Assembly (NCBI GenBank): GCA_019057815.1
Contig: JAHLWR010000014.1
Coordinates: 1 to 64,000, forward strand
Length of the DNA stretch: 64,000 bases
Direction: 5' to 3'
Source: Candidatus Heimdallarchaeota archaeon
GTDB taxonomy: Archaea; Asgardarchaeota; Heimdallarchaeia; Heimdallarchaeales; Heimdallarchaeaceae
The stretch's first letter is position 1. Every line of letters begins with the position of its first letter. The notes below the pieces were generated by a model that saw only the letters and a program-made list of their open reading frames with translations, was not told the origin of the DNA and did no database searches. The position numbers were made by a program, and so were the translations under genes. This document shows positions 43,146 through 46,797 of this stretch, piece after piece.

Positions 43146-44768
43146 CTATATTCTTAGAATTTTTCCTTCCAGAACTTCTTGCAGTTTTCCTTTCTCTACA
43201 GTAATCTTACCATTTACGATAACATAATCTATTCCTGTCGAGAATCTATGAGGTTCTTCATATGTAGCTTCATCTTTAACAGTTTCAGGATCGAATATTA
43301 CTATATCCGCCCAGTAGTTTTCTTTTATTAGTCCACGTTCTTCTAAATCCAGTTTCTTCGCTGGGAATCCAGTCATCTTCCAGATTGCTTCTTCTAATGA
43401 CAACCATTTTTCTTCTCTTACAAATTTACCTAGCACTCTTGGGAATGTTCCATAAAATCTAGGATGGGGTTTACCATGACTTAAAGGACCTTCGGGAGAA
43501 ACACCTGAACCATCGGTTGAGACCATACTATATTCACTTGTCATAATCCTTTTGATATCTTCTTCTCCCATACTTTCGATTGTTATCCAAACCGCACCTT
43601 TCTCGTCACTAATTATACTAAAGAGAGTTTCATAATCATCTTTAAGATTTCGTATTTTTGTTATTTCAGCAATGCTTTTTCCTTCAATGTCTAACCATTT
43701 ATCAGTTTTAACCGAAGCAATGAAGATATTCTCAAAACCTTGATGTTTAGCAAAGTTCTCTTGATCTGTTAATCCTTCTTCCATCTCGTTTTTGATTTTC
43801 TCTCTATTCTTTGCATCATCTAATCTTTCAAGTATTGATTCAATTCCACCAACGTGAACCCAAGGAGGGAGAATAGTGATAAGAGAAGTCATACTTCTAT
43901 TGTAGGGGTATTGATCACAAGTTATGTCCAATCCTCTTTGATTTGCTTCATGAATAATCTGTAATGTTTTCTTACTTAATCCCCAATTAGTTATACCTGA
44001 AGCTTTATGGTGAGCAATTTGTCCGCTCTTACAACCTGACGCTTCAACAATACGAATAAACTCTTCTACAGCTTTAACAACTTTTGCACCCTCATCGCGG
44101 ATATGGGAGAAGTATATTCTATTATATTTAGCAACTATCTTAGCGAGTTCAATCACTTCATCTGTCTTAGCATAAACTTGAGGAGAATATATTAAGCCTG
44201 TACTCATACCAAAAGCTCCAGACTGCAAAGCTTCTTCGACATAGGATTGCATTTTAATTAATTCTTCAGAGGTTGGTGGACGATCTTCATAACCTGGTCC
44301 CCCAGCAAGGCGGATAGCGCCAAAACCGACAAAAGGAACAATATTCATAGAACATTTACCTTTCTCCAGTTCTTTCAAATAATCTTCAAAACTCCTCCAA
44401 GACAGATCAATTTCAACACCTGGAGGACTCCACATGTCAACTTCTTTTTTGAAAAGATCAAAGGTTTCGTCACTGATAGGTGCAAGTGAAATACCGCATT
44501 GTCCCACAGCAGCTGTTGTTATACCTTGAGTAATCATGGATTCAAGCTTGTTGCTGATTGGAATATTGCTGTCAGAATGACTGTGAATATCAATAAATCC
44601 TGGAGCAATAATTAACCCTTTTGCATCAATTACTATGGTTGCTTTATCAGAGATTACTTTTTTAATTTTGGTTATTTTTCCTTCTTTAATCGCTAAATCT
44701 GATAAATAGGGAGGATTACCTGTACCATCAACAATTCTTCCATTGTTTATAACAATATCATAAACCAT
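43146..44768 (-). CDS. N-acyl-D-amino-acid deacylase (amidohydrolase family)
   Basis: PGFIDIHSHSD, QGITT, SHIRDE, PHPRFYGTFPR, ADIVIFD. Confidence 0.92.
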   Translation of the reverse strand: MVYDIVINNGRIVDGTGNPPYLSDLAIKEGKITKIKKVISDKATIVIDAKGLIIAPGFIDIHSHSDSNIPISNKLESMITQGITTAAVGQCGISLAPISDETFDLFKKEVDMWSPPGVEIDLSWRSFEDYLKELEKGKCSMNIVPFVGFGAIRLAGGPGYEDRPPTSEELIKMQSYVEEALQSGAFGMSTGLIYSPQVYAKTDEVIELAKIVAKYNRIYFSHIRDEGAKVVKAVEEFIRIVEASGCKSGQIAHHKASGITNWGLSKKTLQIIHEANQRGLDITCDQYPYNRSMTSLITILPPWVHVGGIESILERLDDAKNREKIKNEMEEGLTDQENFAKHQGFENIFIASVKTDKWLDIEGKSIAEITKIRNLKDDYETLFSIISDEKGAVWITIESMGEEDIKRIMTSEYSMVSTDGSGVSPEGPLSHGKPHPRFYGTFPRVLGKFVREEKWLSLEEAIWKMTGFPAKKLDLEERGLIKENYWADIVIFDPETVKDEATYEEPHRFSTGIDYVIVNGKITVEKGKLQEVLEGKILRI

Positions 44769-44864
44769 TTTACTCGAGTGAATTCACCCAACATCGTTTA
44801 TAACTGTTCCTTCTTCCTTCAGACTAACTAAAATAGAATAACTGGAAATAACAAACATGAGTTA

Positions 44865-45075
44865 TTTTCCCCACTTTCCCCAGATTGAAGGGTAGTGGAA
44901 GACAATTTTGAGGACTCTGCCCAACCCAGGAGCGTTTAAGGGAGCATCGCTTAAAGCAGTAGTTTAGGGAGTTTCAAGCTCTGGGATTACACCTCCAACA
45001 CACAGTGTTAGCGGAGGTGAGAGGGTTCATCTCCTCACCGGGACTCATTACTGGAGACAGTGTTATTGAGAACCT
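44865..45075 (-). ncRNA. Predicted omega-RNA (reRNA) scaffold plus guide of TnpB
   Basis: Hairpins GGTGAG..CTCACC, CCTCC..GGAGG and CCCAG..CTGGG. An internal TTGAA can pair with the terminal TTCAA. The guide would be TCTGGGGAAAGTGGGGAAAA. The 5' end is uncertain. Confidence 0.65.
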
Positions 45076-46553
45076 TAGGCTCTCACTCCAGCTCCGGGGG
45101 TAAGCAGATGACTCTGCTTCGTCTGTAGCCATTGGCTCAAGACAGGGAAGACACGAAAAGAAATGAGTGGAAAAAACTTTCCACTAACTTGGTCTTTAAT
45201 GGAGTTGTATTTTGGTTGCAGAACATATTTTATCAGTCTTTTAGCAATATTCTTCGCCCCATTCAAGTCTGCATTAAGGTTGTACCCACAGGTATGGCAG
45301 ATGAATGTTGGTTGGTTGGGACGGATAGTGTGATAGGATCCACAACGCGAACAATAAGAAGATGTTCCCGATTCACCTATTGCTAGTATCCTGTGCTCCT
45401 CCCATCCTTGTAAAGAGAGCTTGAATTTCAGCAATTCTACCACTCTCCTATAATTCCATTTGTGGACATTTTTACGAGAGTGAGGGTAGAGATTACCCCT
45501 ATAATGACTCTTGCGGATATGAAGGGGGAAGCCTACCACTACATAGAGGTCATATCTCTTGCCAACAGAGAGAATATACTTTACTAACTTGTTGACATAG
45601 GTGTGGTCGGTTAGTTGATGTTCTGTTCTTTGGCGCTTTCTGAGCGATTTAAGTTGGTGGAGAAGACTGTCTCTCTTGTTTACATTCAAACTATGTTTAG
45701 CACTAATTTTCTGCAGTTTAGCGATCTTTCTTTCAGTTTCCTTTAGTAGTTTTTTTCGTGTCTTATCAGACCAGAATCTGATCTCATGACGATTGATAGC
45801 TCCTTTCGGAGTTAACAGTGCACTTACTGCACGCTTGTTGATTCCTAGGTCTATCCCCAGCACAGCTGGAGGACGAGAAGAAGAGTATTTATCTGGAACA
45901 TGAAGCAAGATGAAATGTACCCACCACTCCTTCTTCTTGGGATAGCAGAGCACTTCTAGTGCCTGTAATTTCCCCTGATTTAGGTTATGTTCATGATAAG
46001 GTGAACAAGCTAAAGGTAACCACAATTTCTCGTGTTTGTGAGTGTTGTTCTTCTTTGTATCGAAGGAGTCTCTTATCCCCACCCACCATCGGGCAATGGA
46101 GTTGGAAGGAGAACAAGTAAGAATAAACCTTTTAGCATGTGATAGCTGTGTCCGGGGGATTTTTTTAAGTGTAGGATCTTTAGCAGGCGCTGAGTTATTT
46201 GCTTGTTGACTGTGGTAGATGGCTACAGCGTTCTCTCTACATTCTTGGAACTCATTCTGAGAGCAGCGTGGAAAGCTCTTTTTAAAATCGTGTCTAACTG
46301 TAGGGCGATTGGGTAATTTATTCATCTTGCATGTTGTAAGCGTAAGATGGTCTAGTTTTGCTTTACTCACCTTCTTCTTACCCTTCTTTGTTATTGCTAT
46401 TTGCTCTTCATTGTGGTATATTACTTTGAGGTACTGTTTGATTATTCTCGTGTCTCTCCCCGTAATCTGTTCCAGTCTTTTTCTTTTCCGTGTTGTGATC
46501 ACTTCTGCTTTCACTCTCACTTTTACAGTCGTTCTCACCCCACTTCTCGTCAT
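45075..46553 (-). CDS. tnpB: RNA-guided endonuclease TnpB with rearranged RuvC-II
   Basis: RuvC-I LGIDLGI; RuvC-II region YVVVGFP (no Glu); IGESGTSSYCSRC...CHTC Zn finger; RuvC-III NADLNGAKNI. Confidence 0.92.
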   Translation of the reverse strand: MTRSGVRTTVKVRVKAEVITTRKRKRLEQITGRDTRIIKQYLKVIYHNEEQIAITKKGKKKVSKAKLDHLTLTTCKMNKLPNRPTVRHDFKKSFPRCSQNEFQECRENAVAIYHSQQANNSAPAKDPTLKKIPRTQLSHAKRFILTCSPSNSIARWWVGIRDSFDTKKNNTHKHEKLWLPLACSPYHEHNLNQGKLQALEVLCYPKKKEWWVHFILLHVPDKYSSSRPPAVLGIDLGINKRAVSALLTPKGAINRHEIRFWSDKTRKKLLKETERKIAKLQKISAKHSLNVNKRDSLLHQLKSLRKRQRTEHQLTDHTYVNKLVKYILSVGKRYDLYVVVGFPLHIRKSHYRGNLYPHSRKNVHKWNYRRVVELLKFKLSLQGWEEHRILAIGESGTSSYCSRCGSYHTIRPNQPTFICHTCGYNLNADLNGAKNIAKRLIKYVLQPKYNSIKDQVSGKFFPLISFRVFPVLSQWLQTKQSHLLTPGAGVRA

Positions 46554-46797
46554 TCTAGGATCATTACTTATGTTAGATTTCCCTATAAAAAGTTAACTCA
46601 AATGTGGGGAAAGCGGGGAAAATTTACCATGCTTACATTACTATTCAAAAAAAATAAGATGTTTTTAGTTATGCAGAAATAGATGAAAGAGAAGAATAGT
46701 TATCTTCTTTTTTTCAGAAAAAAAGTTAAGCTTATTCCTCCAACTACAATAACTAACCCAGCAATGTAATATAATATGTGTTGGATTTGTTCAATTG

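Follow-up and report, generated by a model that had tools for sequence, protein, structure and literature searches.

Analysis of a 64,000-nt stretch of Candidatus Heimdallarchaeota archaeon (assembly GCA_019057815.1, contig JAHLWR010000014.1, positions 1 to 64,000; hereafter the window) revealed a tnpB gene whose 492-aa product, P0001 (45075..46553, minus strand), is with a probability of roughly three in four an intact TnpB of a known class with a rearranged RuvC-II site (TnpB2, RIIr or Ealt), glutamate E394 standing in for the canonical Glu. This catalytic arrangement is already published and tested in other proteins, and the locus adds to it a conserved, Asgard-wide lineage. The less ordinary part is the transposon that bears the gene, with its inverted repeats, strict CATG junctions and mini-elements combining a putative promoter with a putative guide.

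All motifs quoted in the initial annotation of the window were confirmed codon by codon. The aspartates of RuvC-I and of RuvC-III that it had described as intact (LGIDLG and NADLNG) are D235 and D429, and its reading of VVVGFP at the canonical RuvC-II Glu position, with another Glu ahead of the zinc finger, was borne out for G341 and E394 by profile alignment, invariance and co-variation. In an alignment of the family profile with solved Cas12f chains, the catalytic Glu of 'MEDL' falls at G341 and the Pro of 'IDPQYTSQRC' at E394. Across 38 diverse family members, whose identity to P0001 lies between 83% and about 32%, residues D235, G341, E394, C401, C404, C419, C422 and D429 were invariant. 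When 1.84 billion cluster representatives were searched exhaustively with HMMER, 1228 relatives came back; among the best 150 of these, the sequences of at least 320 aa were aligned (95 rows), and 91 span the RuvC region. Positions 341 and 394 proved coupled in these 91 representatives (GE in 78, EP in 9, EA in 3 and SE in 1), and such a clean alternation between GE and EP or EA favours the compensation model. The single SE state belongs to P0003, a metagenomic copy 90% identical to P0001 that carries Ser341 (VVVSFP) and retains E394, the sole state among the 91 with neither Gly nor Glu at position 341.

In a quick unrooted maximum-likelihood tree of the 91 rows, the 12 canonical-Glu rows formed one branch with 91% support, some of them on long branches, and P0001 fell deep within a clade supported at 99%, in which all members are G+E except its own Ser341 near-copy. 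The assignment to a 492-aa TnpB of the rearranged class is thus upheld by a complete open reading frame (ORF) and by this clade, and the grouping with canonical IS605 TnpBs that the initial annotation had raised as the contrary case was not seen. Secondary structure assigned by DSSP on the P0001 model put G341 at the close of strand 335-342 (beta4) and E394 directly after the neighbouring strand 389-393 (beta5), the same geometry as the beta4-to-beta5 relocation of Glu in RIIr TnpBs (PMC10691335). P0001 also fits the published pattern D{P}G x(120,160) E x6 CxxC x(12,18) CxxC x(4,8) D (PMC10711439), reading DLG in its first motif, with D235-L-G, 156 residues, E394, 6 residues, C401xxC404, 14 residues, C419xxC422, 6 residues and D429. 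Judged from these alignments, the rearranged pattern lies far above chance. The carboxylate that the D235/D429 metal site lacks most likely comes from E394, because this residue co-varies with the loss of the canonical Glu, is invariant in the family, and is equivalent to E467 of mimivirus Fanzor2, the mutation of which abolished cleavage (PMC10530073). Another family member, P0120 (736 aa, from a Heimdallarchaeota metagenome-assembled genome, MAG), carries winged-helix domains (MarR, HTH_20, TrmB) as an N-terminal fusion and retains D, G, E and D; the nuclease may here be joined to a DNA-binding part.

Prokaryotic proteins with this arrangement were named TnpB2 by Jiang et al., who included an archaeal representative, the Thermoplasma volcanium TnpB (TvTnpB), that cuts DNA at an NTGAC target-adjacent motif (TAM) without collateral activity (PMC10530073). 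The initial annotation had taken the arrangement as characteristic of Fanzors and their TnpB precursors, a specificity that does not hold: Altae-Tran et al. encountered altered RuvC-II motifs across prokaryotic TnpB/Cas12, namely in two major clades and in eight large branches, some of them almost exclusively archaeal, the largest group having Gly for Glu with an alternative Glu compensating (PMC10691335). Yoon et al. defined Ealt as the Glu six residues ahead of the first CxxC (PMC10711439). P0001 shares with these proteins the Gly at the canonical position, the Glu six residues before the first CxxC, the intact D...D, the zinc ribbon, the size and fold of TnpB, and a 3' structured RNA extending to the right end; archaeal hosts are known among them as well. 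It differs in that its family forms a separate group, seen in the present searches only in Asgard MAGs; matches outside them reach about 31% identity at most, across the RuvC half. TvTnpB moreover resides in an IS605 with a Y1 TnpA, whereas P0001 lies in an inverted-repeat element with CATG junctions and no TnpA. Canonical IS200/IS605 TnpBs (ISDra2, 8exa/8h1j; ISFba1, 8iaz) and Cas12f have the same WED-REC-RuvC-ZnF-RuvC domain order, are the best sequence and fold matches of P0001 (E 1e-21, Z 14-18) and likewise have an RNA gene into which the 3' end of the ORF extends; they differ in carrying the Glu on beta4 and Pro or Ala where P0001 has E394. We found no paper mentioning both 'TnpB' and 'Heimdallarchaeota'.

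Domain and fold comparisons placed P0001 among TnpBs. It matches PF07282 (Cas12f1-like TNB / OrfB zinc ribbon) with 48.8 bits for a cut-off of 26.3, and its best full-length match is the NCBIfam guided_TnpB model, at 73.7 bits over residues 41-439 for a curated cut-off of 100; with this sub-cut-off score, P0001 belongs to a divergent TnpB subfamily. The alignment to this model starts at residue 41, equivalent to model position 29, so that the claimed extended N-terminal region is an overstatement: the protein is indeed longer, and the N-terminal share is minor, the extra length consisting mostly of small WED/REC insertions and a C-terminal tail of roughly 50 aa. This tail is encoded by the DNA of the candidate guide RNA, and its final 14 residues are of low confidence in the AlphaFold2 model, which was built with the 38 relatives as input (mean predicted local distance difference test score 83). 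The model displays the WED-REC-split RuvC-zinc finger fold of TnpB, with Foldseek E values of 4.5e-16 for Cas12f and 2e-12 and 7e-12 for TnpBs (overall range 4.5e-16 to 1.9e-10). Structural superposition gave a VIA Z of 18.1 with AsCas12f (8j12_B; 357 aligned residues, root-mean-square deviation (rmsd) 14.5), 14.6 with ISFba1 (8iaz) and 14.2 with ISDra2 (8exa), canonical TnpBs spanning 14.0-14.6, and 15.5 with mimivirus Fanzor2 (9b0l; 357 aligned, rmsd 20.3), to be compared with 16-18 for Cas12f folds.

The Asgard host proposed in the initial annotation proved right, the genome being that of a Heimdallarchaeaceae-like archaeon. About 200 homologues (E<=1e-3) were found in Heimdallarchaeota, Heimdallarchaeaceae, Hodarchaeales, Thorarchaeota and Promethearchaeia. 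With one genome considered per GTDB species, full-length relatives occurred in Asgard MAGs only (Heimdall, Thor, Promethearchaeati), and identity outside them did not exceed the figure given above. Genomes of Ca. Heimdallarchaeum carry many copies of the family. A scan of IMG/VR for viral or Fanzor2-like relatives yielded no close relative, only weak partial matches without taxonomy.

Table 1. Positions of the tnpB gene, its active-site codons and the element that carries it, in window coordinates.
Feature	Position	Strand	Basis or remark
Whole tnpB-only mobile element, 1776 bp including CATG at each junction	44856..46631	(-)	Homology limits among 5 full copies
Left-end terminal inverted repeat, CATG plus two tandem TTTTCCCC-type 10-mers	46598..46631	(-)	
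TATA-like box TTTTTATAG, lying about 31-41 nt upstream of the start codon (ATG) of tnpB	46584..46592	(-)	Read from the sequence; presumptive function
tnpB coding sequence	45075..46553	(-)	492 aa plus stop, open and complete
D235, RuvC-I Asp in LGIDLG (motif DLG, not DPG)	45849..45851	(-)	Family alignment, codon check
G341 in VVVGFP, at the canonical RuvC-II Glu position, end of strand beta4	45531..45533	(-)	
E394 in IGESGTSSYC, alternative RuvC-II Glu right after strand beta5, ExxxxxxCxxC	45372..45374	(-)	
C4 zinc ribbon, C401/C404/C419/C422	45288..45353	(-)	Invariant in family; PF07282
D429, RuvC-III Asp in NADLNG	45267..45269	(-)	Family alignment, codon check
Candidate omega/reRNA scaffold, 290 nt	44856..45145	(-)	Shares 45075-45145 with tnpB (its final 23 codons plus stop) and extends as far as the right end
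Right-end terminal inverted repeat, closed by CATG beside the flank from which the guide would come	44856..44889	(-)	

The ends of the element (Table 1) are true inverted repeats of about 30 bp and not palindromes, each made up of CATG and then two TTTTCCCCAC-like 10-mers in tandem; when the right end, whose motif is CATGAGTTATTTTYCCCACTT, is reverse-complemented, it agrees with the left end at roughly 25/30 positions. The genome of the window (G000; 3.74 Mb, 48 contigs) carries five full copies, three intact (89% protein identity) and two broken, together with six mini-elements of about 358 bp, in which a 72-nt left end with the TATA-like box is fused to the guide-RNA region. Comparison with a genome of the same genus (G001) revealed the insertion site of the copy on contig C10, which reads CATG-element-CATG in G000 and is uninterrupted, with a single CATG at the same point, in G001. 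For the window copy, the orthologous locus in genome G014 is occupied by about 700 bp of other DNA and does not represent a clean empty site. A reading of the flanks as having no target duplication was rejected, since the doubled sequence is always the same CATG. The left flank reads R-W-R at 9/9 insertion sites in G000, the base preceding CATG being a purine at all nine, and C at the right end; the relative L024 is an exception to both regularities. As for kinship with known mobile elements, the ends of IS605 elements, unlike those of the present one, form subterminal hairpins and lack inverted repeats, and a Y1 TnpA comes with them; an IS200/IS605 identity was rejected on the grounds of the true inverted repeats and of the absence of a Y1 TnpA with matching ends. 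The mini-elements recall palindrome-associated transposable elements (PATEs) and the stand-alone omega-RNA mini-elements of IS200/IS605, which also consist only of ends and guide-RNA scaffold; those of G000 differ by their inverted-repeat ends, their CATG junctions and the tnpB promoter-like region fused to the RNA.

Several irregular sites accompany these copies. The mini-element at G000:C9:56170-56528 (L012:1279-1637) replaces 417 bp of coding sequence of G001:C7 (L110:2184-2602); both breakpoints lie at CATG, and the flanks are 417 bp apart inside a gene in G001, so that the insertion is tied to the loss of neighbouring DNA up to another CATG. At G000:C39:29292-29330 (L003:3189-3226), the 'empty' site of G001:C4 (L127) lacks the CATG and about 38 nt after the right end, and this gap is enclosed by CCTAAAG / CCTGAAG microhomology; this would fit a break in the guide-matching flank that was repaired by end joining, or simple slippage. 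The 10-mer CTGAAGGAAG, found 19 times in the genome, lies 32-33 nt past the right end of both the C40 copy (window 44813-44822) and the C39 copy, and the flanks between the right end and CTGAAGGAAG are unrelated in the two. Solo right-end remnants without an element occur at G000:C19:25554-25574 (about 25 nt) and C27:90263-90315 (about 50 nt). Alongside this family, the genome harbours another tnpB element, 1.35 kb long and of classical IS605/IS1341 type with palindromic subterminal hairpins, in about ten copies (for example C19:31681-33022, C4:58709-60058 and C38:11661-13011).

The initial annotation had noted the lack of a tnpA, and this holds for the element and its flanks. Searching G000 with the pattern of the terminal inverted repeats recovered the known copies and two short remnants only, with no transposase bearing matching ends; across 31 family genomes (G000 and 30 further), the right-end pattern marked only tnpB elements or mini-elements, and clustering of neighbours in 52 Asgard loci gave no recurrent transposase. 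Cas1 was discarded as the mover, two of the three Cas1 genes of G000 belonging to ordinary CRISPR adaptation modules and the third being broken by stops. The two Y1 tnpA genes of G000 are sited elsewhere, and no other element has the ends of the P0001 element.

Falling somewhat short of an even bet, the first explanation for mobility is a DDE-type cut-and-paste transposase acting in trans, for which the inverted repeats would be binding sites and CATG a 4-bp target-site duplication. The length of the terminal inverted repeats, the CATG on both sides against one in the empty site, the retention of both ends by the mini-elements and the neighbouring 417-bp deletion that stops at a further CATG, an expected product of intramolecular transposition, all point in this direction, and both DDE-linked and solo TnpBs with inverted ends have been published (PMC10691335). 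Such solo and DDE- or aCas1-associated TnpBs likewise have tnpB and RNA between inverted repeats, with the transposase in trans, and the GTTCACTCA motif reported for Asgard aCas1-TnpB loci resembles the arms GAGTGAACTC / GAGTTCACTC of the Thorarchaeal relatives of P0001. The linked DDE or Cas1 gene of those systems has, however, no equivalent at the locus of P0001, and a 4-bp CATG duplication is absent among the DDE-, aCas1- and solo TnpB cases in the part of that source available to us (PMC10691335). Against this transposase stand, in addition, the failure to find any transposase-bearing element with these ends in G000 or the relatives searched, the unusual character of an invariant 4-bp palindromic target, and the fact that cut-and-paste excision gives TnpB no clean joint to recognise.

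A second explanation, possible but held tentatively, is a site-specific recombinase acting at CATG, either an IS607-like serine recombinase (using the central AT) or a Y1 TnpA, in which case CATG would be the crossover or cleavage site and not a duplication; in the Y1 variant, the left and right cleavage sites would be identical. IS607 ends are described with imperfect inverted repeats, short direct motifs and the same dinucleotide at ends and target (PMC6188088), and each end here has two tandem 10-mers and the palindromic CATG. Precise excision would restore the single-CATG site needed by TnpB, and G000 encodes an IS607-type TnpA as well as the two Y1 TnpA. The tandem 10-mers and the shared CATG fit IS607. 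Conversely, IS605 and IS607 are both described without terminal inverted repeats (PMC6188088, PMC3119063), and no TnpA is linked in the 52 loci. The resident IS607 was rejected as a partner, its ends being unrelated and starting GGGG. Target duplication and shared crossover or cleavage site are not distinguishable from sequence alone. IS607-type TnpAs (MerR-like helix-turn-helix plus serine recombinase, 197-204 aa) sit at two contig ends (G000:C9:67948-68541 and C18:42-656); the left end of the resident IS607-type element begins GGGGTGACC, unrelated to the tnpB-only element. At G000 C27:146123-148551, a decayed recombinase is followed by a 652-aa TnpB-like ORF. Whichever enzyme is involved, a tnpB-only inverted-repeat element with a palindromic CATG target bears on how TnpB cooperates with transposases besides Y1 and serine TnpA.

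The 290-nt region at the 3' end of the element is exactly what the six mini-elements keep besides the left end. It is conserved beyond the protein, with about 88% mean column identity even when L024 is included, the protein of which is 68% identical. We examined its covariation in an alignment of 11 sequences, including relatives with 65% and 56% protein identity; nhmmer searches with the region reached only relatives of at least 56% protein identity. The consensus structure of the core (44895-45105) comprises 47 pairs with 95.9% of cells paired, and 14 of the 47 show compensatory double changes, compared with 3.2+-1.3 in column shuffles (0/500 as high) and 2-5 when the 3' partners were slid. 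We therefore predict, by analogy, that these 290 nt are an omega/reRNA scaffold whose guide comes from the adjacent flank, and if that flank is the one 3' of the right end, CATG would be part of the empty site's TAM. The natural mini-elements would then couple a promoter-like region with a guide RNA. The G+C content reaches 0.40 across window positions 44001-46000, where the G+C-rich RNA region and tnpB lie, and is about 0.31 elsewhere.

Taken together, these observations are consistent with a scheme in which an Asgard-restricted TnpB family is carried by a 1.78-kb non-autonomous insertion sequence that inserts at CATG. By comparison with characterised TnpBs, the 3' RNA would act as the omega/reRNA scaffold and take its guide from the adjacent flank; the nuclease would cut the empty site, recognised by a CATG-containing TAM and the flank, so that retention of the element is favoured, and the six mini-elements would depend on TnpB supplied in trans. 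We infer RNA guidance, the TAM and the moving enzyme, as well as the homing role. Several results weigh against the interpretation of P0001 and its element. In addition to the sub-cut-off NCBIfam score and the lack of a transposase with matching ends in G000 or the family genomes searched, two of the five full copies are broken, an Rfam scan of the whole window gave no family at gathering score, and the sequencing runs bearing the element are sediment and subsurface DNA assemblies with no RNA run among them. The right end also finishes ...CTCATG beside the guide flank, where a bare CATG TAM would permit self-cleavage; the TAM must therefore be longer or different.

Among intact copies, including paralogues within the genome of the window (dS 0.35-0.42), the pairwise ratio of nonsynonymous to synonymous substitution rates (dN/dS) was 0.11-0.21 (about 0.15), which argues against decay and indicates that the TnpB protein is maintained by selection in each intact copy. 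Since the gene is intact and under purifying selection, P0001 is likely an active nuclease, as the initial annotation had proposed. The converse possibility, that P0001 was inactivated with the loss of the canonical Glu and exapted as a nuclease-dead TnpB, binding DNA under RNA guidance or serving as a regulator in the manner of TldR-type proteins, appears improbable. It would account for the absence of the canonical RuvC-II Glu, for selection on the protein despite the absence of a transposase, and for the conserved positions of the Thorarchaeota relatives beside a large ORF (described below); purifying selection combined with the invariant triad D235, E394 and D429 argues against it, as do the co-variation of E394 with canonical Glu loss, the multi-copy and mobile state of the element with its clean insertion sites, and the catalytic role of the equivalent Glu in tested members of the class (PMC10530073). 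As an active member of the rearranged class, P0001 would represent a nuclease that is compact (492 aa) and apparently functional, having a well-defined scaffold of about 290 nt and a probable CATG-containing TAM, in a class whose members were reported to be free of collateral cleavage.

The relevance to Fanzor origins put forward in the initial annotation found no support in the analysis. Fanzor1, Fanzor2 and the cyanobacterial pro-Fanzor IS607 TnpBs have the relocated RuvC-II Glu and the overall TnpB fold in common with P0001; in Fanzors and in the cyanobacterial IS607 TnpBs that preceded them, Ealt goes together with a RuvC-I DPG (PMC10711439), and they thus differ from P0001 by this motif, by their IS607 TnpA association and by their eukaryotic or giant-virus hosts, those of P0001 being Asgard MAGs. 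In the family and the 91 nearest representatives, RuvC-I reads D-L/V/F/I/M/R-G, the middle position being nearly invariant Leu in the family; no serine recombinase stood beside tnpB in the 52 Asgard loci, and the family profile retrieved no Fanzor chain at E<0.01 among PDB chains. That P0001 belongs to the lineage behind eukaryotic Fanzors, as an Asgard 'pro-Fanzor' sharing the rearranged site by descent, is very improbable: the common Ealt, the Asgard host, inverted-repeat ends as in many Fanzor1-carrying eukaryotic transposons and a Fanzor2 Z slightly over that of canonical TnpBs are outweighed by a family with DLG throughout and DPG in 0/91 representatives (PMC10711439), by the lack of a linked IS607 TnpA, by profile matches restricted to Cas12f/TnpB chains, by the higher fold scores of Cas12f and by the many TnpB branches in which the E-to-G/Ealt change arose (PMC10691335). 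The Fanzor-origin reading is unsupported because the motif is DLG and not DPG, no IS607 TnpA is linked and, in PDB profile and fold searches, Cas12f ranks over Fanzor2, itself level with canonical TnpBs by fold score; the likeness would be one convergently recurring feature, and on present evidence the locus has no bearing on Fanzor origins. We likewise give very little credence to the idea that the family is the archaeal counterpart or source of the TnpB-in-inverted-repeat-transposon arrangement of Fanzor1, on an undescribed CATG-targeting transposon; if true, Fanzor diversity would come in part from the archaeal partner in eukaryogenesis and not only from cyanobacterial IS607.

Finally, some relatives of the family have recurrent neighbours. 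A divergently transcribed ORF of 1500-1900 aa precedes the TnpB relative in 14-16 Thorarchaeota loci, several per genome (L036, L039-L041, L047-L051, L056, L057, L061, L064 and L086, also L017:935-5734; for example L039:643-5499, minus strand). These large ORFs are only 23-90% identical among themselves and have no Pfam match, and an Atlas search with the large neighbour protein gave no usable match. The arms GAGTGAACTC / GAGTTCACTC, similar to terminal inverted repeats, enclose tnpB only and not the large ORF; the pair could be a conserved two-gene association or reflect a strong insertion preference. In four Heimdall loci (L026:2866-5589, L069:2915-5593, L033 and L032), belonging to a branch of 40-45% identity, a gene for a HerA/FtsK-like ATPase of roughly 900 aa lies directly upstream of tnpB on the same strand.

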